Shown: piece by piece, positions 23 through 61,667 of the stretch
Numbering within the stretch: the first letter of the stretch is position 1
Layout: each line of letters opens with the position of its first letter
NCBI GenBank assembly: GCA_963699255.1
Contig: OY969425.1
Location: 646,070 to 710,069, forward strand
Length of the DNA stretch: 64,000 nt
Source: an uncultured bacterium
GTDB lineage: Bacteria > Margulisbacteria > WOR-1 > CAVSGV01
Reading direction: 5' to 3'
The notes under the pieces: model-generated
Databases searched by the model: none
Told to the model about the DNA's origin: nothing
Seen by the model: only the letters and a program-made list of their open reading frames with translations
Translations under genes and position numbers: made by a program

Positions 23-1090
23 TCATTCGGATAAGGAATCCGATATTTTCCCCTTTGTCAAAAGGCTCCTGAGTCCCTGGTAAAATGACACACCCTTATC
101 GAAGATAGTATAGCTCACAGGTTCAAATGGCAGGTCATACGCGCCTATCCAGGACCTGACGGCTCCGTTAAAACCTTTTTTAAATCTATATACCCCGAAA
201 AGCGGATGTTTTTCGTCAGGGCTTGAAGGGATACCCCAAAGGTCATACACTTTAATCCCGTTTTCTTTCGCCCATTTTATCAGATGCCAGTGAAGGGCGT
301 GGTTGGGCATGACGTTCCTGTAATCATTGATCGATGCTCCGTACATGTACCAGATACGATCCCCGAACCTGAAAGCAAAAAGCGAGGCTACGGGGATGTT
401 CTGATATTCGGCGATAAAAACATTCGCCAGGCCTCTGTCGATGAGGCATTCCTTCAGCTTAAGGTAATACGACTGCGGATGTATGAGGAAAACATCCCTC
501 TTGCTTGTTTCGCGGTATATCTTATAAAAAGACTCGATGCCCTTCCCGGTCGATTCCTCTCTTACTCTAACGCCTTTTTTCTCCGCAAGCCTGATGTTAT
601 ACCTGGTTTTTTCCTCAAAGCTCATCAGAAGTTCGTCGAGCCCCTTTGTGAGATCTATAAAATAGGTCGTCCGCGGCTGCACCTGTTTGTGCTTGCGGAT
701 AAAACCCCTTTTATTAAGGATATTGACCGCCGCGGCATCCTTCTCGTCTATCTCGGGATCTATCTTCAACGCGATGGCGTTCCTCAGCGCCGCCTCCACG
801 CACACGCTGTCAACGAGGGCGTTGATCAGTCCGGGATCGGAGAACGGGACTATGGGGCCCCTGGGAGCATAGAAAAAGTTCTTTTTAACTACGGGGAGTT
901 TCCTGGATAAAATGGACATTCCGGCTTTTATCTGGCCGCCGTCCTCCACCGCTACTATGAAATGGTCCCACCCGAGTTTTGACTTGAACTCCCCCCACTC
1001 GTAGGACTGGAGTATCTGGCTGTCTTTCTGGGAGGCAACAAAATCATCCCATGCCGTCCTGTCATTTGCTGTTAACACCCTGACCTGCAT
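23..1090 (-). CDS. FemAB-family peptidoglycan bridge-formation aminoacyltransferase (FemX-like)
   Basis: 355 aa ORF. The translation matches the FemAB/FemX fold family (conserved FYAPRGP..., KYR/FKKGF motifs). Confidence 0.65.
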   Translation of the reverse strand: MQVRVLTANDRTAWDDFVASQKDSQILQSYEWGEFKSKLGWDHFIVAVEDGGQIKAGMSILSRKLPVVKKNFFYAPRGPIVPFSDPGLINALVDSVCVEAALRNAIALKIDPEIDEKDAAAVNILNKRGFIRKHKQVQPRTTYFIDLTKGLDELLMSFEEKTRYNIRLAEKKGVRVREESTGKGIESFYKIYRETSKRDVFLIHPQSYYLKLKECLIDRGLANVFIAEYQNIPVASLFAFRFGDRIWYMYGASINDYRNVMPNHALHWHLIKWAKENGIKVYDLWGIPSSPDEKHPLFGVYRFKKGFNGAVRSWIGAYDLPFEPVSYTIFDKGVSFYQGLRSLLTKGKISDSLSE

Positions 1091-1117: not shown

Positions 1118-1160
1118 AAGAGATGCGAGATGAGAGATGGGAGATGAGATAAAAGATGTG
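1118..1160. repeat. heptanucleotide array (GAGATGN)x4-5 in the femX/trpG intergenic region
   Basis: AGAGATG CGAGATG AGAGATG GGAGATG AGATAAA AGATGTG. The same ~30-nt element recurs at 53029 and 59883. Confidence 0.6.
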
Positions 1161-1167
1161 ATATAAT
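1159..1167 (+). promoter_or_regulatory. extended -10 element (TGaTATAAT) 8 nt upstream of the trpG ATG, which implies a leaderless or near-leaderless transcript
   Basis: TGATATAAT read directly in the sequence at 1159-1167. The ATG is at 1175 and no SD lies between them. Confidence 0.35.
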
Positions 1168-1174
1168 CAATAGC

Positions 1175-1738
1175 ATGATCTTGGTAATCGACAACTATGA
1201 TTCATTCACTTATAACCTGGTCCAATATCTGGGCGAGCTCGGGGCTGAACTTCAAACCTACAGGAACGACAAAATAACCATTGACGAGATAAAGAAGCTG
1301 AACCCCGAAAAGATCCTCATCTCTCCCGGCCCCGGCTATCCGAAAGACGCTGGAATAAGCATCCCTTTAGTAAAGGAGTTCGCGGGCAAGGTCCCGATCC
1401 TCGGGGTTTGCCTGGGGCATCAGGCCATCGGGGAAGCTTTCGGGGGGCATATTGTCCAGGCGAAACGCTTTATGCACGGAAAAACATCACAGATCCATCA
1501 CGACGGAAAAACGATATTCAAGGGGCTTCCGGATCCGTTCACCGCAACAAGATACCACTCTCTGCTGGTTGAAAAAGCAAGCCTGCCTGACTGCCTTGAG
1601 ATAAGCGCCTGGACGGACCAGGACGAGATAATGGGATTAAGGCACAAGGAATACAAGGTGGAGGGCATTCAATTCCATCCTGAATCGATACTGACCACTG
1701 AAGGGAAAAAGCTTCTTAAGAACTTCTTGTCCCTTTAG
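1175..1738 (+). CDS. trpG: anthranilate/aminodeoxychorismate synthase glutamine amidotransferase component II
   Basis: 187 aa; class I GATase with GVCLGHQ and catalytic H/E motifs. No trpE is adjacent, so it may act as pabA. Confidence 0.85.
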
Positions 1739-23786: not shown

Positions 23787-25433
23787 ATGACGCTGGAAAA
23801 CGACCTGAAAAAGATGGAAAAGAACAATTCTCTGTTCGAGGAGAATATCCGCAAGATAAGAGTTCCGGTCCTTAAAAAGTTCCAAAGCAAGGGCAAGCTG
23901 GTCCCTTTGTCATTTGAGCCGACAGGTAAGATATTGGAGACTAAATACAGCGCCGCTGTGTCTAAGGCGTTCCCTAAAGTTGTCGGTGCCGGCAAGAACA
24001 GATTGCTCTCCGGCTCTAAACCCAATAAGAAACCGGCTAAAGGCAAGCGTGTTGCCGTGTTGTTCTCCGGCGGTCCGGCAGCCGGCGGCCACAATGTGAT
24101 CGCCGGTTTGAAGGCCATACTGGGCAAGAACAATACATTGCTTGGAGTTAAAGCCGGGCCCAAGGGTTTATTGGCAGGTGAGCTTTTTGAGATCACCGAT
24201 GAAGCCGTGAAGCGTATCTTGAATACCGGCGGTTTTGATTTTTTGGGCTCGGACCGCACCAAGATCAAAACCGATGATCAATTCCGGCAGGTCAAGAATG
24301 TTTGCGGGAAGAACGAACTGGATGCGATAGTGATCATCGGCGGCGACGACTCCAACACCAATGCCGCTGTGCTGGCTGAGCATTTCTATGGCAAAGTCCA
24401 GGTGATCGGCATCCCCAAGACCGTTGACGGCGATCTGCAGGTCGGCGGGCTGCTGCCGATCTCGTTCGGTTTTGATACCGCGACCAAGATCTATGCTGAG
24501 ATGGTCGGCAATATTTTGCAGGACACTCGATCTTCCCTCAAGTACTGGCACTTTATTAAGCTGATGGGCCGTGCTGCTTCGCACGTGGCTCTTGAGGTCG
24601 CGCTGCAGACCCGTCCGCCGGTTTGCCTGATATCTGAGGAGATCGCGGAGAAGAGATCGTCCCTGGGCGAGATCATTGATTCTATCGCCCAGATCGTTGT
24701 TGCCAGGGCAAAGAAAAAGATCAATCACGGGGTTGTGCTCATCCCGGAAGGCATCGTTGAGTTCATTCCGGAAATGAACGTTTTGATCTCTGAGTTGAAT
24801 GATGCTTTGGCTCATTACGGCCAGACCAAAGCAGTGGACCATCTATCCGCGGCCAGTGCGCAGCTATTCAGATCCTTGCCTGCGTATATTCAGGAGATGT
24901 TGCTGGCTGAAAGGGATTCTCACGGCAATCTGCAAGTTTCTTTGATCCCAACCGAGCGATTGATCATCGATATGGTCGCTCGCCGCGTCAAAGAGATCGA
25001 TCCGGGTGTTAAGTTCAACACGCTGCATCACTTCTTTGGTTACGAAGGACGCTGCGGTGCGCCTTCTTTATTTGATGCCGCTTATACCTACAACCTTGGT
25101 TTGGTCGCTGGCTCTCTGATCCTGGACGGCAAAACCGGCTACCTGGCTGCCCTGACCGATCTATACAAAGGCGGTAAAGCTCTGGGTATACCTTTGACAG
25201 GTCTGCTCAATGTCGAGCATCGTCATGGCAAAGATGAAATGGTCATCGAAAAAGCTCTGGTCAGGACGGATTCTCCGGCTTTCAAATTCTTTGCTTCGCG
25301 GCGTGAGGATTGGGCTGATGATGACAGGTTCACTTCTCCTGGTCCGCGCCAACTATGGGGGCCAACGACCAAACAGCTCCCGATATCTGTTGCTTTAAAT
25401 CAAGGCTATAAAGGCCTGGAATTCACTCTGTAA
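23787..25433 (+). CDS. pfp: pyrophosphate-dependent phosphofructokinase (diphosphate--fructose-6-phosphate 1-phosphotransferase, long form)
   Basis: 548 aa; GGPAAGGHN, GGDDS and MGR motifs, and the long ~550 aa architecture of PPi-PFKs. Confidence 0.8.
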   Translation: MTLENDLKKMEKNNSLFEENIRKIRVPVLKKFQSKGKLVPLSFEPTGKILETKYSAAVSKAFPKVVGAGKNRLLSGSKPNKKPAKGKRVAVLFSGGPAAGGHNVIAGLKAILGKNNTLLGVKAGPKGLLAGELFEITDEAVKRILNTGGFDFLGSDRTKIKTDDQFRQVKNVCGKNELDAIVIIGGDDSNTNAAVLAEHFYGKVQVIGIPKTVDGDLQVGGLLPISFGFDTATKIYAEMVGNILQDTRSSLKYWHFIKLMGRAASHVALEVALQTRPPVCLISEEIAEKRSSLGEIIDSIAQIVVARAKKKINHGVVLIPEGIVEFIPEMNVLISELNDALAHYGQTKAVDHLSAASAQLFRSLPAYIQEMLLAERDSHGNLQVSLIPTERLIIDMVARRVKEIDPGVKFNTLHHFFGYEGRCGAPSLFDAAYTYNLGLVAGSLILDGKTGYLAALTDLYKGGKALGIPLTGLLNVEHRHGKDEMVIEKALVRTDSPAFKFFASRREDWADDDRFTSPGPRQLWGPTTKQLPISVALNQGYKGLEFTL

Positions 25434-28373: not shown

Positions 28374-28525
28374 ATGGCAATAAAGGCGATTTAGGGCAAA
28401 ATAAGGCAACAGAAGACACAAGGCTTATGGCTCAGGGTAAAAGCAACTATTCTTTTGCCCTTAGCCATGTATCTTACGCCCTATCCCCTCCATCTCTTCA
28501 TTTGCCTTCAATCGCCTTCAATATC
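28374..28525. repeat. long imperfect palindrome (two ~70-nt inverted arms of degenerate 10-nt ARGGCGATWR units), 'empty' copy
   Basis: The arm ATGGCAATAAAGGCGATTTAGGGCAAAATAAGGC...ATGGCTCAGGGTAAAAG mirrors CTTTTGCCCTTAGCCAT...GCCTTCAATCGCCTTCAATATC around a centre at ~28448. Confidence 0.6.
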
Positions 28526-30418: not shown

Positions 30419-30850
30419 CTACTTCAAGAATCCGATGTTCTTGACCGTTTTATCCGGTATTTCCATCAATTCGTTTATCGCGTCAAAAACCACCTTGAAC
30501 TTGCCGTCGTATTTCTTTTCCATTTCCTCGATCTTCCGCTTCAATTCCGCATGGCTGGAAAGTAATCGTCTTAACCTTGTGAATGTCCTCATGATCTGGA
30601 TATTGACCTGAACGGCTCTTTCGCTGTTGAGCACTGAAGACAGCATTGCCACTCCTTGTTCAGTAAAGGCATAAGGCGAGAAGCGCCTCTTGCTGTATTT
30701 TGCGGTCACAAATTGTGACCGCAAATATTCAGACTCTTGCTCTGTCAACTGGAACATAAAATCATCAGGAAATCTCCGAATGGCAATAAAGGCGATTGAG
30801 GGCGATAAAGGGCGATAGAAGGCACAGGGCTTATGGCTTAGGGCTGGCAC
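30419..30850 (-). pseudogene. ORF6N-domain (KilA-N-like) protein, 5'-truncated by insertion of the palindromic cassette
   Basis: [15 protein letters not shown]...[29 protein letters not shown] matches the C-terminal half of the ORF6N domain. Sequence upstream of RFPDDF is repeat-derived, and the N-terminal half of the domain is absent. Confidence 0.6.
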
Positions 30851-31387: not shown

Positions 31388-31548
31388 AAGGGCAATTAAG
31401 GCGATTGATGGCGATACAAGGTGGTGGAAGGCATATGGCTAAAGGCTCATGGCAAAAGGAAATTTGTTTCTTGCCTTTTGTCTTATATCGTAAGCCCTAT
31501 ATGCCCTCTTTTGCCTTCAATCGCCATAAATCGCCCTTTATTTCTGCG
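31388..31548. repeat. long imperfect palindrome of the same family, 'empty' copy
   Basis: AAGGGCAATTAAGGCGATTGATGGCGATACAAGG... mirrored by ...CCTTCAATCGCCATAAATCGCCCTTT around a centre at ~31465. Confidence 0.55.
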
Positions 31549-33134: not shown

Positions 33135-33482
33135 TTATTCTTCTTCTCTCTCTCTTAAATTTTCTTTTTTCGTCCATCCGGATATGTTCACCTGGACCAT
33201 ATTCCCCTCGCTGCCCACCCTCTTTATTTCAGCGCCTTTTTGGCGTAAATATATGTAAGCTCGCCGTGAAATATACGCTCCAAACCTCACCTTGATCCAC
33301 CCGCCCTTTTCATCGATATCCGTTATTTTTATGTACTGGGTCTTCTGCAGAGTATAGACCAACATTGCCTTTACCGAAGGCCCTTTCCTTATATTGGCAT
33401 GATCCCATCGAACAGCCCAGTCCGACGCGAAAACCGGCAGCGAAAGCACTATCAGGATCAGAACGATAAACGCTTTTTTCAT
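33135..33482 (-). CDS. exported SH3b-like domain protein
   Basis: 115 aa from MKKAFIVLILIVLSLPVFA, with a signal peptide. The longer ORF-track extension is a shadow of the pilin gene. Confidence 0.5.
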   Translation of the reverse strand: MKKAFIVLILIVLSLPVFASDWAVRWDHANIRKGPSVKAMLVYTLQKTQYIKITDIDEKGGWIKVRFGAYISRRAYIYLRQKGAEIKRVGSEGNMVQVNISGWTKKENLREREEE

Positions 33483-33608
33483 GAACAATATATACCACCG
33501 GCCGCCCGGCACATCAAGAGCAATATTTGGGTGTTGACATGCTTGCACCGTATAAGATACAATTTCCATAAAAGGTTCACATGTCCCAAAAGAAAGGCGG
33601 GATGAAAA

Positions 33609-34049
33609 ATGAAAAGCAGAGGATTTACCCTTATCGAGCTCCTTATAGTAATGGCGGTCATAGCGATCCTTATCGGCATAGCGCTGCCCAGCTTCAGGGG
33701 AATGCAGCAGGAAGCCAGGAAGACAAGGGCCCAGGGCGATGTAAGGACCATAAAGATGGCGGTGGAGGCATATTACATGGACCACCAGAACACCTATCCC
33801 GCCGAAGCAAATTACCAGGCGACCCTTCAGGCTTCCGTCCCGCAGATACTTACCAGCACCCTGTATGATCCTTTTGGCGCCACTTCCACGACGCAGTATC
33901 TGTATTCTCTGGACACTCACAACCCCGCCACGGCAAATTATTATATTATTTCTTCGGTCAGCCCATCTGGTGTTGCTACCGCTACCGTTAGCACGACCGG
34001 AACCATAACCGCATCGTCCGATGCGATCTACGCTTCGAACGGCCATTGA
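33609..34049 (+). CDS. type IV pilin / T2SS pseudopilin-like protein (prepilin-type N-terminal cleavage/methylation domain)
   Basis: MKSRG|FTLIELLIVMAVIAIL: a class III signal peptide with a G/F cleavage site and E5. Confidence 0.8.
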   Translation: MKSRGFTLIELLIVMAVIAILIGIALPSFRGMQQEARKTRAQGDVRTIKMAVEAYYMDHQNTYPAEANYQATLQASVPQILTSTLYDPFGATSTTQYLYSLDTHNPATANYYIISSVSPSGVATATVSTTGTITASSDAIYASNGH

Positions 34050-34230
34050 TATTAAATGATGCTGAGCTCTAGATCTTAACGCCGGGTTGTTTGGCTTTCT
34101 CGAGCTTCGAGCCCGGCTCCGTATCGCCCTAACTGCCGAGCCTTTAAATTGCAGCACTTTTTTGGCGTTTGAAACGCGAAAATATGATATAATTTTTAAA
34201 TAAGACCCTCAAGAAAGGCCGGATAAAAAA

Positions 34231-37351
<3,121 letters not shown>

Positions 37352-37361
37352 AGAAATAAAT

Positions 37362-37472
37362 CTCACAAATTACAATAAACAAATCACAAACAATAAACAA
37401 TCAACAAATTACAATGTTTGTCAGATTGTATATTGTAAATTGTTTGTAACTTGGGATTTGTTTATTGTGTAT
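37362..37472. repeat. A/C-rich heptamer-periodic tract (CAAWNAA units) followed by its G/T-rich inverted complement; a long imperfect hairpin between nrnA and truB
   Basis: ACAATAAACAAATCACAAACAATAAACAATCAACAAATTACAA, then TGTTTGTCAGATTGTATATTGTAAATTGTTTGTAAC.... Confidence 0.45.
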
Positions 37473-42283: not shown

Positions 42284-43321
42284 ATGGGCATGGAAATAAG
42301 AAGAGTTCAGCGTTTTTTCAATAAGATAACCGCTGGCATGAATGCCGGAGTCCATAACGCTCGAGCCGACGCTTATTATAAACAAGGAAAATTGGATAAT
42401 GCGATATTTGAGCGCAAAAAAGCCATAGAGTTCAAACCGAATCGTGTAGAGTTTCACGCCAACTTAGCTTCTCTTTATGAAGAATGTGGAAAATCATATG
42501 AAGCAATAGTTGAATACAATAAAACCTTGGGGGTTGACCCGAATTTTCCGAACGCTAACTACCAGTTAGGCCGTCTTTGTTGCCAGAAAGGAAGATTAAC
42601 TGAGGCGATCCCGGCTCTCGAAAAAGACATTAAGAGCAATCCGGATCACGCGGAAGCTTACGCCTGTTTAGGTATCGTTTATGAACAACAGGGGCCATTA
42701 TACATGGCAATATTTAATTACGAAAAAACCCTGGAGATCGACCCGAATTTTCCGAACATTAACTACCAGTTAGGCCGTCTTTGTTGCCATGAGGGAAGAT
42801 TAACTGAGGCAATCCCGGCTCTCGAAAAAGACATAGAGAGCAATCCGGATCACGCGGAAGCTTACACCTGTTTAGGTCTCGTTTATGGACAATTGGGGGA
42901 ATTTGACGATGCAATATCAAAGCTCAAAAAAGCGATAGAGCTTAAGCCGGATCTTGCAAGACCCCACTTTAATTTAGGTTGTATATATTATCAAAAGGGG
43001 GAATTGTATAAGGCCGAGCTTGAATTTACAATAGCCATCCAAATTGACCCTGATTATTATGAGCCTCCTCTCCAAGTCTCAGGTGCCGGACATTTTGATT
43101 ATGCATACCGTATAAATAATTACCACACGCATCTAACGGAAGATATCATTGCTTCTAAATTTGGAACGGAAAACGCCATGACGATCGAGCCGAGTCATGT
43201 AAATAAACATCGCAATCCGCGAAATGTTTCTGCCGAAGTGTCACTTATTTTAAAAAGAAGAGCGGGTTTAACGGCAAACGGCTCACAGATCGTTCATCGA
43301 TCCAGTGCGGTAACCGCCTAG
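42284..43321 (+). CDS. tetratricopeptide repeat protein
   Basis: Multiple 34-aa TPR units (AEAYACLGIVYEQQG, NYQLGRLCC... repeated). Confidence 0.7.
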   Translation: MGMEIRRVQRFFNKITAGMNAGVHNARADAYYKQGKLDNAIFERKKAIEFKPNRVEFHANLASLYEECGKSYEAIVEYNKTLGVDPNFPNANYQLGRLCCQKGRLTEAIPALEKDIKSNPDHAEAYACLGIVYEQQGPLYMAIFNYEKTLEIDPNFPNINYQLGRLCCHEGRLTEAIPALEKDIESNPDHAEAYTCLGLVYGQLGEFDDAISKLKKAIELKPDLARPHFNLGCIYYQKGELYKAELEFTIAIQIDPDYYEPPLQVSGAGHFDYAYRINNYHTHLTEDIIASKFGTENAMTIEPSHVNKHRNPRNVSAEVSLILKRRAGLTANGSQIVHRSSAVTA

Positions 43322-44783: not shown

Positions 44784-45107
44784 TTATTTGCTTTTTTTTA
44801 TCATGCCCTTATGCATCATTCCCTTCTCTTTCATCATATCCTGCATCATTGAAGGGTTCTTTTCCATTTTCTCCATCATCATTTCGCATTTCGCGCATTT
44901 CTCTCCCATCATGCCCCTGCCCATCATTCCATAATGTCCTCTTCCCGTTGCCCCTAATACAAGGACCATTACGGCAATAAGCGCGACAAGAACGGCTATT
45001 ATCTGGCCCGCGAGCTTCATGTTCCCGGATTCTTTATTTGCGAGGGCAAGCACTATGTATGCAAAAGCGAGGATGAATATCACTAATGTGATCATTCCAT
45101 ATATCAT
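44784..45107 (-). CDS. methionine-rich small membrane protein, putative Cu(I)-binding
   Basis: Two TM helices, then MxxM/MMxxM motifs (GMMGRGMMGEKCAKCEMMMEKMEKNPSMMQDMMKEKGMMHKGM). Confidence 0.5.
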   Translation of the reverse strand: MIYGMITLVIFILAFAYIVLALANKESGNMKLAGQIIAVLVALIAVMVLVLGATGRGHYGMMGRGMMGEKCAKCEMMMEKMEKNPSMMQDMMKEKGMMHKGMIKKSK

Positions 45108-47335: not shown

Positions 47336-48297
47336 ATGGAAAGTTTTTCAGCTAGCTCCAGTACGGACCTGTCTATGGTCTTTTTCACTCTCACCGCTCT
47401 GGCAAAATCGGTCGCCACTATCTTCCCGTTCTGCATCCCGACAAGCTTGTTCCTGCTGCCTTTGAGGAGCAGCTCGACGGCCGCAGATCCGAGCTTGCAG
47501 GCAAGCGCCCTTGATTCTGCGGACGGGGACCCGCCTCTTTGAATGTGCCCGAGCACCGTTACCCGGACGTCCACTTTAAGTTTCTTTAAAATGTACTCCC
47601 CGAGAACATGCCCCCTGCACACGCCCTCCGCGGTCACGATAATGCTGCTGTGCTTTCCCCTGTCCATGCCTTCCCTCAGCCTTTTGCAGACCCTGTCAAA
47701 ATCGCATTTTACTTCCGGCACCAGTATTATCTCCGCTCCCGCTCCAAGCCCCACTTCAAGAGCGATGAAGCCGTTGTCCCGGCCCATCACCTCGATGATG
47801 AATATCCTCTCGTGGGACGCCGCGGTGTCGCGGATCTTGTCTATCGCGTCAAGGGCCGTATTGACCGCCGTATCGAACCCTATCGTCGAATCAGTGCACG
47901 GAATGTCATTGTCAATGGACGCGGGAACCGCCATCGAAACGATGCCAAATTCTTTTTGAAGGTCGTACGCGCCGCCCAGAGAGCCGTTGCCGCCTATGAT
48001 TATCAAAGCGTCTACATTGTGGTCCTTAAGCTGCCTTGCCGCGATCCTCCTGAAGGATTTCTTCTTGAATTCCGGGCATCGGACGGTATGAAGTATGGTT
48101 CCTCCCCTGTTCAATATACCTGAAACGGATTTAAGGTCCATAGAGTGGATATCGCCGCCGATAAGCCCCGCATATCCGCGATCTATGCCCATAACACGGA
48201 GCCCGTGAAAGATCGCCGTTCTTACGACAGCCCTTATAGCAGTGTTCATTCCGGGGGCATCTCCTCCCGGGGTAACGACGCCGATTGTTTTTATCAT
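47332..48297 (-). CDS. pfkA: ATP-dependent 6-phosphofructokinase
   Basis: 321 aa; GGDGS, MGR and the GDAPGMN N-terminal motif. Confidence 0.9.
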
Positions 48298-49733
48298 ACA
48301 GACACCTTCCCTTCGGTAACTATCTTGATCGAATGATAGATTATATCAAGCATTCCGCTTAAATCCACGTTCGAAATGCAGAACGGAGGCATAATAACGA
48401 TAATGTCCGAGAGAGGCCGTATTATCAGACCGCGCTTCCTCGCTTCCATTATCACATTGATGCCGATCTTTTCGGACACTCGGTATTCTTTCTTAGTTCT
48501 CTTATCCTTTACAAGCTCTATTCCCGCAAGGAAGCCGCACTGGCGCACGTCTCCTACATGATTAAGCTTGCGGAATCCCCTGAGCTTTTCGGCCAGCAAT
48601 CTTATCTTTGGCTGCAACTTTTGCAGCGTTCTCTCTTTACTGAAAACATCTATCGACGCTATTGCCGCGGCGCACCCGAGGGGATTCCCGGTGTAGGTGT
48701 GTCCGTGATAAAAAGTCCTGTGGCTCTCCTGCGTGCCAAGGAAAGCCTTGAATATTTTTTCCGTTGTCAGGGTCGCGGCAACAGGAAGATACCCACCGGT
48801 CAGGCCCTTAGCGACGATCATTAGATCGGGCTTCACGCCTTCGTGCTCACAGGCGAACATTTTGCCGGTCCTTCCAAATCCCATCGCAACTTCATCGACT
48901 ATCATCAGAATATTGTATTTCGTGCAAAGTTTTCTTATCCCCTTAAGATACCCTTTCGGATACACAAGAATTCCCGCCGCCGCCTGGACAAGCGGCTCCA
49001 CTATCATCGCGGCGATCTCCTTGTGATGAGCTTTCATTATCGTTTCAACCGCTTTCAAACACTTCATCTCGCACTTCGCATCCCTGCCCGCCGAAGCCTT
49101 GGCGTAGGCGGGTCGCATCTCACATCTGTAGCAATACGGTGTCGGCGCCTTGAACGATCTGAAAAGCAGCGGTTTATACATCTTATGGAACAGGTCGATC
49201 CCCCCGACCGAAACGGACCCGATGGTGTCCCCATGATATGCGTTAACCAGAGTTAAGAACTTTGTCTTGAATTTGGGATTTTGAAATTGTTTAGGATTTC
49301 GGATTTCGGATTTCGGATTTTTTCTCTGCTGCCAATATTGGAACGCCATCTTTAACGCTATCTCGACGCCTTCCGATCCCGAATCAGAATAAAAAACCCT
49401 GGTCAACCCTTTCGGCGCAAGTTCGATGATCTTTTCGGCAAGCAAGGTTGCCGGAACATTCGATAATCCGAGCATCGTCGAATGCGCGATCTTGTCGATC
49501 TGTTTTTTTACCGCCCTGTCGATGGCCGGATGCCTGTGGCCGTGAACATTCACCCAGAGGGAAGAAACGCCGTCGATGTACCATTTGCCGTCAATGTCCT
49601 TGATCCACGCGCCCCGGCCTTCCTCAATGATAAGCGGCTCTTCTTTCATCCAATCCCGCATCTGAGTGAAAGGATGCCAGATATACTTATGATCAATATC
49701 TTTCAATATATTTTGTTTCATGGTTGTCTCCAA
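48294..49733 (-). CDS. bioA: adenosylmethionine-8-amino-7-oxononanoate aminotransferase (carries a ~20 aa in-frame insertion encoded by (TCCGAAA)x4)
   Basis: Class III aminotransferase; PLP-lysine region DEVAMGFGRTGKMFA. The insertion KNPKSEIRNPKQFQNPKFKTK has no counterpart in typical BioA. Confidence 0.9.
   Translation of the reverse strand: METTMKQNILKDIDHKYIWHPFTQMRDWMKEEPLIIEEGRGAWIKDIDGKWYIDGVSSLWVNVHGHRHPAIDRAVKKQIDKIAHSTMLGLSNVPATLLAEKIIELAPKGLTRVFYSDSGSEGVEIALKMAFQYWQQRKNPKSEIRNPKQFQNPKFKTKFLTLVNAYHGDTIGSVSVGGIDLFHKMYKPLLFRSFKAPTPYCYRCEMRPAYAKASAGRDAKCEMKCLKAVETIMKAHHKEIAAMIVEPLVQAAAGILVYPKGYLKGIRKLCTKYNILMIVDEVAMGFGRTGKMFACEHEGVKPDLMIVAKGLTGGYLPVAATLTTEKIFKAFLGTQESHRTFYHGHTYTGNPLGCAAAIASIDVFSKERTLQKLQPKIRLLAEKLRGFRKLNHVGDVRQCGFLAGIELVKDKRTKKEYRVSEKIGINVIMEARKRGLIIRPLSDIIVIMPPFCISNVDLSGMLDIIYHSIKIVTEGKVSV
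49293..49324. repeat. heptanucleotide array (TCCGAAA)x4 (coding strand) inside bioA
   Basis: Plus strand AGGATTTCGGATTTCGGATTTCGGATTTT. Confidence 0.6.
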
Positions 49734-52764: not shown

Positions 52765-53580
52765 ATGAAAAAACACCTGGTGATGCTCCACGGCTTCGGC
52801 TGTGACTCAAGGGTATTCTCATCGATCGGAACGAAACTGTCAAAAGACCATGACGTCCTTATGGTGGACCTGCCCGGCCACGGCCAGACCAAGGAAAAGT
52901 TCGGCGATTTTTCTTTCTCCGCTTACACGATACTTCACGCGCTCGACCAATATCTGGGCGAGCCTTACTCTCTTCTCGGCTGGTCGATGGGAGGACAGAT
53001 CGCGCTAGAAATGTACAAGCAAACAAAGAAGAGATGGGAGATGAGAGATGCGAGATGCGAAAAGCAAGAGTCTAAATGCAAATGCGGGCACGATCACGAA
53101 CATGAACATGCGCACAGCGATATCACATCGCTCATCCTCGTTTCATCCACGCCAAAGTTCGTGGCTTCAGACGATTTCCCATTCGGAATGAACAAGGCCG
53201 TTTTCAGCAAGTTCAGAAAGGGTCTAAAAGATCACCCTGAAAAGACAATGAACGATTTTTACAACCTTGTATTCTCTGACAACGAGGATGCGTCCTTGTT
53301 TCTATCCAGCATCCAAACCCAAACCCCATCCCAACAGACCCTTCTAGAATGCTTGAAAAGTTTCGAGCGCTTCGACGGAAGGAACATTCTTCCCGCGGTG
53401 AACGTCCCCACCCTGATAATGGCCGGCGACGGCGATGAGGTGATCGACCCGAAGGCGTCGCTTTATCTGTCGCAGGAAATAAAGAGCAGCTCATTGAAGA
53501 TGTTCAGGGGCGCCGGACACGCGCCGCATCTTACAAGAGAAAAGGAAATGATCGATGAGATCTCAAAGTTCCTTGGATAA
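52765..53580 (+). CDS. bioH: alpha/beta hydrolase, BioH-like pimeloyl-ACP methyl ester esterase, with a His/Cys-rich insertion
   Basis: GWSMGG nucleophile elbow. Divergent from bioB and adjacent to bioC. An insertion ~KKRWEMRDARCEKQESKCKCGHDHEHEHAH is partly encoded by (GAGATGN)x4. Confidence 0.6.
   Translation: MKKHLVMLHGFGCDSRVFSSIGTKLSKDHDVLMVDLPGHGQTKEKFGDFSFSAYTILHALDQYLGEPYSLLGWSMGGQIALEMYKQTKKRWEMRDARCEKQESKCKCGHDHEHEHAHSDITSLILVSSTPKFVASDDFPFGMNKAVFSKFRKGLKDHPEKTMNDFYNLVFSDNEDASLFLSSIQTQTPSQQTLLECLKSFERFDGRNILPAVNVPTLIMAGDGDEVIDPKASLYLSQEIKSSSLKMFRGAGHAPHLTREKEMIDEISKFLG
53029..53064. repeat. heptanucleotide array (GAGATGN)x4 inside the bioH-like CDS (in frame)
   Basis: AGAGATG GGAGATG AGAGATG CGAGATG. 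Confidence 0.6.
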
Positions 53581-54359
53581 GAACAAGATAGCCCGGTCCT
53601 TTTCAAGATCGGCCGAGACTTACGACCTGTTTTCCCGGCTGCAAAAAGACCTTGCGAACGATCTGGTAAAGTCCGTAGCATCCATCAATATCTCCCCGAA
53701 GAACATACTTGATATCGGCACGGGAACAGGTAATGTTGCATTCCTGCTGCATGAAAGATACAGGGACGCCATTATCACCGGCTGCGACATAGCTCCTGGA
53801 ATGATAAAGAAAGCCGCCAACAACAACCCTTATGAGAACGTGGCTTTCGAGGTGGCTGACGCCGAGAACCTGCCTTTTACGGATAAGAAGTTCGATCTTG
53901 TAGTATCCAGCACGACATTTCAATGGGTCGAGGACCTTTCCAGGGCGTTCTCGGAGGCGAAAAGAGTTCTCATCCCCGGCGGGTACTTCGCATTCGTTAC
54001 TTTCGGGCCAAAAACCCTGTCGGAACTTAAACGGAATTACAAGATCGCCTTCGGTGAAGATGCGGATCATCTGCACAAGTTCAATAACATGCGCGAGATA
54101 CAGGCGATGCTGAAAACGGCCGGTTTTGAGGCTTTAAAATTGAACTCCGACACGCTGAGGGAATTCTACCCTGATTTCAGGACGTTCTTCAGGTCGCTGA
54201 AGGGGCTCGGAGCGCTGAACGCCTCGCCGGACCTGCCGAAAGGTCTAAGGTCACCGGACAAAGATGAACGCGCTGATCAAGTATTACGAGACCAACAGCA
54301 GGATAGGGAACCGGGTTTATGCGACGTTCGAGGTCATCAGAGTGCTCTGCAGGGCGTGA
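53555..54359 (+). CDS. bioC: malonyl-ACP O-methyltransferase, with a C-terminal frameshift near 54250
   Basis: ILDIGTGTGN motif I. The conserved C-terminus (MNALIKYYETNSRIGNRVYATFEVIRVLCRA) is in the +1 frame and ends at 54359. The ORF-track frame reads through to 54370. Confidence 0.8.
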
Positions 54360-54373
54360 TCAGAACTTGACCT

Positions 54374-59076: not shown

Positions 59077-59904
59077 ATGCTTAAATCCCAAGATGGCGTT
59101 ATTTTTTACCGGGAATGGAACTGCCCTTCTCCCAAGACGGTCGTCATACTTGTCCACGGGCTTGGCGGGTACTCGGGAAGATTCTTCGAGTTCGGCCCTT
59201 ACCTGGCAAAGCACGGCATGCAGGTCTATGCAATAGAGCTTAAAGGCTTCGGCGAATCCCCTTCCGTAAAAGGCCACATCGATAACTTCCAGACCTATAC
59301 GAACGAACTGAAGTCCCTCGTTGTAACGGCGAAAAAACTGCATGCGGAAAAAAAGATATTCATGTTCGGCGAATCGATGGGCGGGCTCATCACGCTTGAT
59401 TTCTTGATCCATCACCAGAACATGATCGACGGGGCGATCCTGATGTCCCCCGCCGTAAAAGACAAGCTGCCGATGCCCTTTGCGAAAAAACTGGAGATCT
59501 TCAGATCCGCGATGTTCGATCCGATGGCGTTCTTCCCTGCCGGCTTCTCGGCGGAGTTGTTCACGCGCGACAAAGTGATGGCAAAAAGGATAAACAACGA
59601 CCCTCTCGAGGTGAGGCAGTTCACGGCAAAGTTCTTTTTCTCGATATTGAAAGCGATGATATTCGTGAGCATGAAGCCCCGCGCGATCAATCTTCCCGTC
59701 CTCATGCTGCTTGCGGGGCATGACTCGATGATCTCTGCTGAAACCGCGGAGAGGTATTTCAAGAAAATGCCATCGAAGGACAAAGAACTGAAATGGTATC
59801 CGGAAATGTTCCACGCGCTTTATGTTGATAAGGATAGAGAGCCTGTTTTCAAGGATATTGTTGATTGGATAAATAAAAGAGCAGAGATGGGAGATGTGAG
59901 ATGA
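59077..59904 (+). CDS. alpha/beta hydrolase, lysophospholipase/monoacylglycerol-lipase-like
   Basis: [10 protein letters not shown] and GESMGG nucleophile elbow. The stop overlaps the glpK start (ATGA) inside a (GAGATGN) array. Confidence 0.75.
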
Positions 59905-59913
59905 GAGGTGTGA
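59883..59913. repeat. heptanucleotide array (GAGATGN)x3-4 spanning the hydrolase stop and glpK start
   Basis: AGAGATG GGAGATG TGAGATG AGAGGTG. Confidence 0.6.
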
Positions 59914-61400
59914 AGAAATACATATTAGCTATAGATCAAGGCACCACCGGCTCAACGATCATCATCTTCGACAAAAAAGGCGGAATAGCATCGAGAGCTT
60001 ACCGAGAATTCCCTCAGATATTCCCAAAGCCAGGCTGGGTGGAGCATGACCCTGTCAAGATATGGCAGTCGGTAAAGCTGACGATAACCGACGCGCTAAA
60101 GGCCGGAAAGATCAAGGGAAGCGAGATCGCCGCGATCGGTATCACAAATCAGAGAGAAACCACGATCATATGGGACAGGAAGACAGGCAGGTCGATCTAC
60201 AACGCTATCGTATGGCAATGCAGAAGGACAGCGCAGATATGCGACGCCCTGAAAAAGAAGGGTCTTGAGCCCTACGTCCAGAAAGCGACCGGGCTGAAGA
60301 TAGATGCGTATTTCTCGGGAACAAAGATAAAGTGGATACTAGATAACGTCAGAGGAGCTAGAAGAGCTAGAGGAGGAAGATGTGGGGGATTGGCTTTTGG
60401 GACTGTTGATACATGGATAATATGGAATCTGACTGATGGCAAAAGTCACGTTACCGACTATTCAAATGCTTCAAGGACGATGATTTACAACATTCGAAAG
60501 CTTGATTGGGATGAAAAGCTCCTCAAAATACTTCGCATTCCGCGTTCTCTTCTTCCCAAGGTCGTCCCCTCTTCCGGAATTGCCGGGCGCACAAAAGGCC
60601 TAGGGGTCCTGCCGGACGGTATACCGATCGCAGGAATAGCCGGCGATCAGCAGGCTGCTTTATTCGGGCAGGGCTGCCACGAGCCCGGGGACATCAAGAA
60701 CACTTACGGAACCGGCTGTTTCATGCTTGTTAACACCGGAACAAAGGCCGTTAATTCAAAGACCGGCCTTTTGACAACGATCGCATGGGGAATTGATAAG
60801 AAAGTCTTTTACGCTCTTGAAGGCTCCGTTTTCATTGCTGGCGCCGCGATCCAATGGATCCGCGACGGACTGGGTCTGATCAAGAAAGCTGCAGAGACCG
60901 AAGCTATCGCAGAGTCGGTCCCTGACACAGGCGGCGTGTATTTTGTCCCTGCTTTCGTCGGCCTTGGCGCGCCTTACTGGAACATGTACGCGCGCGGCAC
61001 TATCACCGGAATAACCAGGGGCACGACCAGGGCTCATCTGGTCCGCGCGACGCTTGAGTCCCTTGCCTATCAGACAAAGGATGTACTCCTCTGCATGCAG
61101 ACGGATTCGCATCTCAAGATAAGATCGATGAAAGTGGACGGTAAAGCCGCGGAGAACGGTTTCCTGATGCAGTTCCAGGCGGATATCCTGCCGGCAAAAG
61201 TGATCCGGCCAAAGATCATCGACACCACCGCGCTCGGGGCGGCGTATCTCGCAGGTCTGGGAGTTGGTTTCTGGAAAAATCGGAACGAACTAAAGAAACT
61301 CTGGAAGATCGATAAAATATTCAGTCCTAAAATGGAGAGGACTCAAAGGAATAAGTTATATCAGGGTTGGGAAAAAGCCATATCTCAAGCTCAACGTTGA
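59901..61400 (+). CDS. glpK: glycerol kinase
   Basis: 499 aa; [11 protein letters not shown]-terminus and FGGY kinase motifs. Confidence 0.95.
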
Positions 61401-61419
61401 GAGCTTAGATGTTTAATTT

Positions 61420-61452
61420 CTAATCTCCAATCTCTATTCTCTAATCTCTACA
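61420..61452. repeat. heptanucleotide array (GAGATTR)x5 on the minus strand, spanning the DUF167 stop codon
   Basis: Minus strand: GAGATTA GAGAATA GAGATTG GAGATTA GAAATTA. Confidence 0.55.
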
Positions 61453-61667
61453 ACCTTCTCCCTTGAAGTAAGGCCTCTTATGATCGATATTCCGCTTTTT
61501 TTAACGCCGAAATGCTCAGCAAGAAGATCGATAAGCGCGGCATTTGCCTTTCCTTCCACGGCCCTTGCCGTCAGATAGACCTTAAGGCGGCCGGGCTCCT
61601 CCACCAATCTGTCCCGTTTTGCGTTAGGAATGACCTTTATATTCAATTTTGCCATTGCAGAAAGCAT
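61434..61667 (-). CDS. DUF167 (YggU) family protein
   Basis: 77 aa; KVIPNAKRDR...LKVYLTA...GKANAALIDLLAEHFGV matches DUF167. Confidence 0.7.
   Translation of the reverse strand: MLSAMAKLNIKVIPNAKRDRLVEEPGRLKVYLTARAVEGKANAALIDLLAEHFGVKKSGISIIRGLTSREKVVEIRE

Follow-up and report, generated by a model that had tools for sequence, protein, structure and literature searches.

A stretch of 64,000 nucleotides of contig OY969425.1 from an uncultured bacterium (hereafter, the window) contains short arrays of a 7-nt unit, in which the hexamer GAGATG is followed by a variable base (GAGATGN), in the spacer upstream of trpG, inside bioH, and across the junction of an alpha/beta hydrolase gene with glpK, together with arrays of other heptamers, for example in bioA and at the end of a DUF167-family gene (Table 1). 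These arrays are probably (rough probability, 0.6) heptanucleotide simple-sequence repeats (SSRs) of the known type, called long SSRs (LSSRs) or short tandemly repeated repetitive sequences (STRRs), which grew from local seeds by slippage or template switching and were then filtered. The uncultured lineage is rich in heptanucleotide repeats; most of the feature is explained, and nothing that was found requires a new mechanism.

The source genome was seen through the window, which was searched with Tandem Repeats Finder (TRF) and with our own scan of all periods. The sequence GAGATGNGAGATGNGAGATG, with at most two mismatches, gave seven overlapping matches at three loci (0.01 expected; none of 100 shuffles reached seven), and the three GAGATG arrays that the sequence-only reading of this DNA had described were found again at 1120-1146, 53031-53060, and 59884-59910, with three to four units each. 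The units stand head to tail, with TRF copy numbers of 4.4 (1119-1149), 4.3 (53031-53060), and 3.6 (59883-59907) for these arrays, 5.3 for the GAGATTR array, and 4.4 for the TCCGAAA array (TRF unit TTTCGGA), that is, at least three copies in every case. Period-7 arrays numbered 15 in the window and about 1 in shuffles. Period 7 was the most over-represented tandem period in the all-period scan, exceeding even period 9, the one favoured by coding sequence. Lone GAGATG hexamers were not notably over-represented in the window (52, arrays included; about 31 expected).

With BioH and BioA as queries, a clade comprising some 50 proteins of uncultured bacteria was retrieved, sharing 60-86% BLASTP identity with their window counterparts; the next named BioA relatives were from Nitrospirota metagenome-assembled genomes (MAGs) (61-64% identity). 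Syntenic contigs (L122, L124/L125, L126, L127, L128, and L209) and one trpG locus (L129) were compared with the window. Note that L124 and L125 were 100% identical; thus, they represent the same strain and are uninformative on polymorphism. The clade DNA contained 30 period-7 arrays in 155 kb (19.4 per 100 kb), and period 7 was the commonest period in 155-170 kb of it. As controls, we used 379 kb of unrelated DNA, namely 79 non-clade loci from a metagenome scan with TrpG (the sole clade member returned was L129), where period-7 arrays occurred at 8.45 per 100 kb and period 9 led. By place, 22 of the 30 clade arrays lay inside open reading frames (ORFs), 3 across ORF ends, and 5 between genes. 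Arrays of GAGATGN itself were present at three loci in the 64 kb of the window (with degenerate units in bioA in addition), at four loci in L124, and at two in L129. The arrays are not an assembly artefact, as the sequence-only reading had allowed they might be: the trpG array was identical base for base in an independent Logan assembly of a sequencing run (L001), and contigs from other metagenomes carry arrays at the same sites.

The unit is not confined to this lineage. A scan of 185,579 species genomes for (GAGATGN)x3 gave arrays in many phyla among the matches listed (loci L002-L121), and 119 of 129 of the arrays in other phyla among these matches were homogeneous in N. The arrays of other phyla are thus ordinary single-unit SSRs and say nothing on a shared element. 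Homogeneous (GAGATGN)n arrays reached 29 units among the matches listed (Sorangium sp. So ce375, L039), and many of these matches came from Bacteroidota, Gemmatimonadota, and Verrucomicrobiota MAGs, which indicates that heptamer SSRs are widespread.

The gene assignments of the sequence-only reading (TrpG, BioH, BioA, hydrolase/GlpK, and DUF167) were right; TrpG, BioA, BioC, and GlpK were called by NCBIfam. The 77-residue ORF that ends in VVEIRE was called DUF167 by synteny, because L124 and L128 have PF02594 genes at the same place. In BioH, the array is in frame, as had been claimed, and encodes KRWEMRDARCE within a lineage-specific loop. The NCBIfam match to BioH-type esterases falls in two pieces that leave out residues ~91-115, and the array loop is missing from distant BioH proteins and from some clade members. 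The array at the hydrolase/glpK junction provides the last hydrolase residues AEMGDVR and the TGA stop, and, through an ATGA overlap, the glpK ATG at 59901 and its first three codons (GlpK begins MRGVKK); both the stop and the overlapping start had been recognised from the sequence. The (GAGATTR)x5 array that had been placed over the DUF167 stop was likewise observed: it starts in the last codons of that gene, supplies the TAG stop, continues downstream, and lies 14 nt past the glpK stop.

The trpG array (units GAGATGC, GAGATGA, GAGATGG, and a final GAGATG at 1120-1146) ends 26 nt before the trpG ATG and abuts an extended -10-like sequence, TGATATAAT (1159-1167). The latter stands 7 nt before the ATG, with no Shine-Dalgarno sequence, and this arrangement is conserved in the window (1159-1177) and in L129 (2979-2997). 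Judging from the sequence, trpG may be translated from a leaderless mRNA, in which case the array would be promoter-upstream DNA; transcription from a weaker promoter-like site (1080-1109) would put it in a 5' leader. RNA folding of the trpG leader region (1100-1200) was no better than that of shuffles (z = +0.87), and neither an Rfam scan nor a tRNA scan of the whole window found anything. Pairing of the glpK 5' array with the (UAAUCUC)5 after its stop was also considered (-30.9 kcal/mol; shuffles, -25.3 +/- 3.7, with 40 of 500 equalling it) and was rejected as generic purine/pyrimidine pairing.

In BioA, the insertion at site A, the loop after FQYWQQ, encodes RKNPKSEIRNPKQFQNPKFK, of which the TCCGAAA part, read on the bioA sense strand, gives NPKSEIRNPK. 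The in-frame TCCGAAA array had been noticed before, with an insertion of ~20 residues; the array is present, and the insertion is 14 residues when measured against Bacillus subtilis BioA (3DOD) and L209. In an alignment of 47 sequences (41 clade members and 6 more distant ones), site A was 8 residues long in 16 sequences, 15 in 10, and 22 in 7, and it was 10 residues long in four Nitrospirota outgroup sequences. The 7-residue step equals 21 nt, or three heptamers, the least common multiple of 7 and 3, and the site carries 0, 3, or 6 added units across the relatives. The window is in the 22-residue state and its closest relative, L209 (~87-90% DNA identity), in the 8-residue state; the two differ by 42 nt, and the BLAST alignment breaks exactly at the insertion. 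The native site of L209, AGCGGAATGCCGAAAAAG, contains GCCGAAA and the near-match GGAATGCCGAAAAAG.

The units that fill site A differ among the relatives: GAAATCC (= TCCGAAA; peptide KSEIRNP) in the window and L122, GAGATGN (RRDARREMGDV) in the L124 group, AGTTAAG (KLRVKS) in L126 and L128, GGGTAAG (GQGVRDK) in L127, and, as deduced from the peptides, AAATGAC (KMTNDKCQ) and AGTGCGG (SAECGVRSA) in other orthologs. The site A arrays of L127 and L128 (~85% DNA identity) are equal in length and phase, and every unit differs in parallel (GGGTAAG and AGTTAAG), which points to turnover inside an inherited array and not to independent insertions. Between the window and L124, the unit changes at two of seven positions (GAAATCC and GAGATGC, respectively).

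Site B of BioA consists of the units CAGATGT and GAGATGC followed by GA and, after an interruption by a nested 27-nt GC-rich hairpin, GGGATGC, GAAGTGC, and GAGATGA; its orthologs read EMRDERCEMRC, EMRCEMRGKKNEMRC, and similar. The conserved Tyr-Arg-Cys-Glu-Met codons at this site, CAGATGTGAGATG, are a near-match to the unit. Relative to 3DOD, sites A and B are insertions of 14 and 9 residues, and both are coil in the AlphaFold model, which is of moderate quality (mean predicted local distance difference test (pLDDT) score, 69); pLDDT is <50 over most of site B and dips to ~50 within site A. The alignments of BioA and BioH orthologs that had been proposed thus bear out that the repeat-encoded segments are lineage-specific insertions in variable loops.

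The other sites gave a similar picture. Upstream of trpG, the array has 6.3 units in L129 and 4.4 in the window at the same position, between conserved flanks (TTTTATCATA...AAAAAA on one side and the -10-like sequence on the other), and half of the L129 units are decayed (GAGGCG, GATATG, and GAGACG). Another GAGATGN array of L129 spans the stop of a murE-like gene (AAGAAGAGATGA...). In L124, GAGATGN arrays were found in BioH (GAGATGCGAGATGGGAGACGCGAAATG, at the site of the window array), at both BioA sites, and in a GlpK loop, and in L128 an (AGAGATN)3 array abuts an ATG of its DUF167 gene. The hydrolase/glpK junction is array-free in L124 (AAGCATTTATGAAAAA) and has just a one-unit seed in L128 (AATAAGAGATGAATGATGCGAAG; AATAAGAGATGAATG), where the DUF167 C-terminus is also un-expanded and native (...GTGGAGATCGAAGG...). 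Since a near-match to the unit is already present in array-free relatives, the arrays seem to have grown in place. Arrays of one length are retained across orthologs ~74-90% identical to the window protein, and the arrays behave as stable insertions, not as on/off switches. The earlier suggestion of a small insertion-prone repeat therefore holds in substance: lineage-specific in-frame insertions or expansions occur at several loci, and unit number differs between relatives. AGTTAAG units were found in bioA (L126 and L128) and in glpK (L127). In the GlpK loop of residues 150-163, GAGATGN in L124 (18513-18542) and AGTTAAG in L127 (1133-1163) are accompanied by a length change of 2-4 residues, and the native loop looks overwritten rather than simply extended.

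From these data, we propose the following course of events. Native sequence that nearly matches a heptamer would serve as a seed; examples may be AAGAGATGA at the stop/start overlap, GAGATC in Glu-Ile codons, AGATGY-GAGATG in the Arg-Cys-Glu-Met motif of BioA, and GCCGAAA in Pro-Lys codons. The seed would be expanded through slipped-strand mispairing or short-range template switching during replication or repair. Units would then turn over inside the array by concerted evolution, with the consequence that related species end with different dominant units at one site. Selection would remove most arrays, and the survivors, presumably near-neutral, would be those in spacers, at gene junctions, or inside genes. 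At junctions, GAGATGA can supply both ATG and TGA, that is, the ATGA stop/start overlap. Inside genes, survival would need a multiple of 21 nt (three heptamers, seven residues), a flexible surface loop, and an orientation that yields a hydrophilic peptide such as E-M-R-D-A-R-C or K-S-E-I-R-N-P; no stop codon may be created, except where TGA or TAG is harmless or useful at the end of a gene.

The arrays have the defining features of a known kind of repeat and were classed with it. According to the summaries in PMC4679880 and PMC4692102, heptamers outnumber all other classes of long SSR in many bacteria, polymerase slippage was proposed as the cause, and unit lengths divisible by 3 are the likeliest in coding regions (Mrazek, Guo & Shah 2007). 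Like those long SSRs, as so summarised, the present arrays are over-represented tandem 7-nt units that are scattered over the genome and differ in length between relatives, but most of them (22 of 30) lie in frame within ORFs, and they are short, at 3-6 units, with heterogeneity at one position. The GGGNATC and GGGGAYT repeats of Xanthomonas and Nostoc (Rehm et al. 2015, PMC4692102) prefer about four units, have one degenerate position, lie within 50 bp of ORF ends with sense-strand overlap of stop codons, and are 32% intragenic in Nostoc. Our arrays share with them dispersal, the degenerate position, about four units, clustering at ORF ends with stop overlap, and variation between close relatives. 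However, the lineage is another one, and GAGATGN is purine-rich on the sense strand in genes, whereas the coding strand is depleted of GGGNATC/GGGGAYT. A G3 tract arises in GAGATGN only by chance, where N is G and a G follows, so that the unit lacks G-quadruplex potential.

The TAACTGA direct repeats of marine Beggiatoaceae, cyanobacteria, and a few Bacteroidetes (MacGregor 2015, PMC4679880) are similar in having 2-6 heptamer copies at many loci, often just upstream of starts or over the stop of the upstream gene, with rare in-frame copies at protein peripheries. The unit is different: TAACTGA encodes stops in all forward frames and is thus excluded from ORFs, whereas GAGATGN leaves every frame open, except where N creates TGA, and is common inside ORFs. 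Repeats of the TAACTGA type are found mostly directly upstream of starts, whereas only ~3 of 14 GAGAT-type arrays abut a start codon. STRR heptamers have been described in Calothrix PCC 7601 (as cited in PMC4692102), and heptamers at recF/recO of Nostoc overlap start codons (bioRxiv 10.1101/2022.06.06.494920). Such cyanobacterial STRRs resemble the present arrays in that several heptamer families occur per genome, near promoters or over start codons, with a suspected regulatory role; strict STRRs are predominantly intergenic and belong to heterocystous cyanobacteria, whereas here the host is not a cyanobacterium and ORFs contain 22 of the 30 arrays. The arrays lack the inverted repeat, fixed ends, and fixed order of N that would be expected of miniature inverted-repeat transposable elements, repetitive extragenic palindromic elements, or small dispersed repeats; only the 27-nt insert at BioA site B is a hairpin. 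GAG-containing repeats beside trpG also recall the sites of TRAP. TRAP of Bacillus needs about 9-11 (G/U)AG triplets with 2-3 nt spacers. TRAP-like control of trpG was rejected, the array having four GAGs with 4-nt spacers and occurring also in bioH, bioA, glpK, and murE. In all, the arrays are distinct from the described families in unit, lineage, predominance of in-frame coding-strand intragenic copies, and heterogeneity at position 7. Our literature search found no paper on heptamer arrays in this lineage.

Several observations weigh against an origin of the arrays as ordinary SSRs. In the three window arrays, GAGATG is perfect in all 11 units, and all nine mismatches between adjacent units fall on the seventh base (permutation test, p<0.001 and p=0.003 for two of the arrays), whereas simple slippage should yield identical units; neither identical nor evenly decaying units were seen within these arrays. 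In relatives, the hexamer decays too (GAGACG, GAGGCG, and GATATG), with N still leading (5 of 12 mismatches in L129). The GAGAT core recurs at at least 11 independent loci of the clade, nearly always on the sense strand: GAGAT-type arrays were in sense orientation at 11 loci, and the one antisense case was weak (L128 2676-2706, 75% matches). Among intragenic arrays generally, the sense strand was purine-rich (>0.55) in 18 of 22. Reading of the arrays in the sense direction gives charged peptides, and the bias may well be due to selection. All three window arrays have the 14-mer AGAGATGGGAGATG in common. The recurrent core and this 14-mer could reflect copying between loci or selection on the sequence itself. 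Inside an essential gene, a single 7-nt unit breaks the frame, so that the first step must add at least 21 nt at once, a jump that is not easily given by plain slippage from a single seed. Finally, the excess of period-7 arrays over the control loci was modest (~2.3-fold at the TRF threshold used), and the sample was small (64 kb of the genome).

The need for in-gene jumps of at least 21 nt would be satisfied if pre-formed arrays of that size were written into new sites from existing ones, as a very small non-autonomous mobile repeat, by ectopic template switching, by gene conversion primed with GAGAT-like microhomology, or by a dedicated enzyme. The 14-mer common to the window arrays, the trpG and bioH 28-mers (which differ by a C/G swap only), the presence of AGTTAAG in both bioA and glpK, the apparent overwriting of the GlpK loop without much change of length (L124 and L127), and the nesting of a second, hairpin-type element inside arrays (window BioA site B; TLRLRSGQG or PARNARACDAGG in orthologs) are all in its favour. 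Nevertheless, the arrays lack defined termini, inverted repeats, and target-site duplications, the order of N bases is not conserved between loci, a local seed was present at every site examined, and no transposase, reverse transcriptase, or recombinase family was found in the 30 window ORFs scanned (Pfam and NCBIfam); we consider such copying unlikely. Slightly less probable still is that the arrays are functional binding sites, GAGAUG in RNA or GAGATG in DNA read every 7 nt by an oligomeric nucleic-acid-binding protein that acts like TRAP on GAG/UAG triplets or like the regulator hypothesised for TAACTGA repeats and would set the translation or transcription of trpG, glpK, and other genes, the in-gene copies being by-products or added control points. 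Perfect hexamers with a free spacer base in the window, unlike the N-homogeneous generic arrays among the matches listed, would suit such a protein, as would the sense-strand bias, the retention of the trpG-upstream array in L129, where its position is unchanged, and the arrays that abut or overlap start codons (glpK in the window and DUF167 in L128). Within an array, moreover, each AUG follows the GAG of the preceding unit by 7 nt, a Shine-Dalgarno-like spacing as read from the sequence, and similar proposals exist for TAACTGA and the Nostoc heptamers. On the other hand, half of the L129 units are decayed, the BioA loop holds unrelated heptamers in other species, most arrays (22 of 30) sit deep within ORFs, the -10-like sequence 7 nt before the trpG ATG suggests a leaderless mRNA without the array, neither RNA structure (1100-1200) nor an Rfam match (window) was detected, and spacing and copy number are unlike those of TRAP. 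A further reading, an active, sequence-specific process of this lineage centred on the hexamer GAGATG, in which either a protein reads GAGAUG/GAGATG every 7 nt or a repair or template-switching activity writes GAGATG+N blocks of at least 21 nt in sense orientation into transcribed DNA, would jointly explain the perfect hexamers with a free seventh base, the common 14-mer, and the near-exclusive sense orientation; on this view, what BioA, BioH, and GlpK carry in frame would be its footprints and not passive products of slippage. Nothing supports a dedicated binding factor or writing mechanism, and we give this reading a shade less credence than the binding proposal.

The remaining two explanations are much less probable than these. 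The peptide R-C-E-M-R-D-A, with Cys every seven residues, might itself be useful, for example in extending metal-binding Cys/His loops of BioA and BioH; site B of BioA does lie between the conserved CYRC and CxMxC cysteines, and the BioH array adjoins KCKCGHDHEHEH. However, the array is also found between genes, across stop codons, and in all three reading frames, and heptamers encoding unrelated peptides fill the same loops, by which selection at the protein level is largely refuted. Least credible of all are phase-variable contingency loci, as had been suggested from the sequence, in which gain or loss of a single unit toggles genes by frameshift or promoter spacing. In favour of such switching, 7 nt is not divisible by 3, the length of one array in a promoter/5' region differs between species, and heptanucleotide phase variation is reported at Haemophilus influenzae HMW1A (PMC8262952); with such loci of host-adapted pathogens the arrays share a short tandem unit whose copy number can change by slippage. 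But the arrays here reside in biosynthetic and housekeeping genes and not in surface, restriction-modification, or virulence genes, the 21-nt quantisation of in-gene lengths always keeps the frame, all ORFs are intact with no frameshifted allele seen, the arrays are short (3-6 units) and interrupted, and their lengths are stable over divergent orthologs (~74-90% identity), with L001 identical at the trpG array.

If the arrays are ordinary SSRs, they give a clean natural illustration of how 7-nt repeats enter essential enzymes: only steps of 21 nt (seven residues) survive, tolerance extends only to hydrophilic orientations and flexible loops, and unit turnover gives sister species different repeats in one loop. 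The heptamer-repeat phenomenon itself is established; the 21-nt quantisation with unit turnover in loops of essential enzymes is a neat evolutionary observation. For annotation, odd low-complexity loops in conserved proteins of uncultured genomes become recognisable as translated heptamer arrays, and the arrays may further be of use in interpreting alignment indels and in strain typing. The preference of G-quadruplex-forming heptamers for about four units recurs here in a unit unable to form a quadruplex, which may bear on the explanation of that preference. Should a hexamer-specific binder or writer exist, this poorly known phylum would possess a new system of global regulation or mutation.

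Table 1. Heptamer arrays of the window and the genes that hold or adjoin them (window coordinates)
Feature	Positions	Strand	Context
femAB-like gene	23-1090	-	neighbour of the trpG array
(GAGATGN)x4.4 array	1119-1149	+	spacer between divergent femAB-like gene and trpG
trpG	1175-1738	+	neighbour of the trpG array
(GAGATCN)x3.4 array	34912-34935	-	LigA linker before BRCT domain, peptide MRSEIRDRS
(CGGATAC)x2.7, perfect short array	35461-35479	-	LigA, just ahead of CPVCG zinc-finger motif
(GGGATCN)x5 array	36357-36392	-	LigA loop, ~6 residues upstream of CEL motif
Weakly periodic A/C-rich tract + (ATTGTAA)x2.7	37365-37443	not assigned	spacer upstream of truB
(GAAATGC)x2.1, minimal array of related unit	44880-44894	-	107-residue ORF, CAKCEM
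bioA	48294-49733	-	holds sites A and B
BioA site B	49062-49128	-	degenerate GAGATG units between CYRC and CEMKC cysteines
BioA site A insertion	49264-49323	-	(TCCGAAA)x4.4 (= GAAATCC) at 49290-49320 + decayed units; +42 nt, +14 residues
bioH ORF	52765-53580		holds a (GAGATGN)x4.3 array
(GAGATGN)x4.3 array	53030-53060	+	in frame within BioH, ~31-residue Cys/His-rich loop after GWSMGGQIALEM helix
bioC	53555-54370		
alpha/beta hydrolase gene	59077-59904		overlaps glpK
(GAGATGN)x3.6 array	59883-59910	+	across alpha/beta hydrolase end and glpK start
glpK	59901-61400		
(GAGATTR)x5.3 array	61414-61450	-	DUF167-family gene end; TRF unit TAATCTC = GAGATTA on minus strand
DUF167-family ORF	61434-61667	-	77 residues

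The CEL motif of LigA was placed next to the adenylation motif, which we take from E. coli LigA. The A/C-rich tract had been said to show 7-nt periodicity; it is indeed weakly periodic, but with a period of 14 (65% matches, 37365-37415). The 30 window ORFs scanned with Pfam and NCBIfam belong to ordinary housekeeping families (SerRS, CysRS, Asd, a release factor, SecA, PFK, LigA, TruB, bio genes, and HcyBio among them) or to no family, and a P-type ATPase was assigned by synteny with the relatives.

Around BioA site B (residues ~200-229; 49046-49135, minus strand), the clade and its Nitrospirota relatives share four conserved cysteines, C-Y-R-C ... C-x-M/L-x-C, of which B. subtilis BioA (3DOD) has just the last two (the equivalent of CYRC is YVYR). 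This four-cysteine site may bind a metal, and the hypervariable site B lies between its cysteine pairs. The hairpin nested in site B (49086-49112, minus strand; CCCGCC-15 nt-GGCGGG, CCCGCC-TACGCCAAGGCTTCG-GCGGGC) is in frame and encodes PAYAKASAG. At the same place, orthologs have other GC-rich in-frame inserts (TLRLRSGQG, PARNARACDAGG, PARIATRSVAGG, and PAIPRGASAR), and BioH orthologs carry RLRPEDYGGQAKE near residue 53. Judged by sequence, these inserts resemble a second type of very small insertion element; a search of the window for the nested GC hairpin elsewhere gave no more copies than expected by chance. A hairpin nested in an array recalls the small dispersed repeats of Nostoc that were reportedly described by Elhai in 2008. 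In BioH, the Cys/His-rich stretch KCKCGHDHEHEHAH (residues ~100-121; 53061-53125) adjoins the heptamer array, is built of 6-nt repeats (AAATGC x2 and GAACAT x2), varies in length within the clade, and is missing from distant BioH proteins.

Other repeats and insertions were noted elsewhere in the window. The PFK-family protein encoded at 23787-25433 has 548 residues, and its Pfam PFK match extends over 354 residues for 273 profile positions, which suggests sizeable insertions. A 204-nt tandem duplication (1.9 copies, 89% identity; 42503-42892) lies in the gene of a TPR-repeat protein (42284-43321). A direct duplication of ~500 nt (~85% identity) comprises 33605-34122, inside a 340-residue ORF without a Pfam match (33135-34157, minus strand), and 34227-34769, which extends into the ligA 3' end (BRCT region). 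An element of ~64 nt, with no Rfam match, occurs in three copies 72-84% identical (28374-28437, 30780-30843, and 31389-31452) that precede consecutive minus-strand ORFs or coincide with their 5' ends, and has an internal periodicity of ~10 nt (ATCGCCYTN) and the motif AGCCNTAAGCC.

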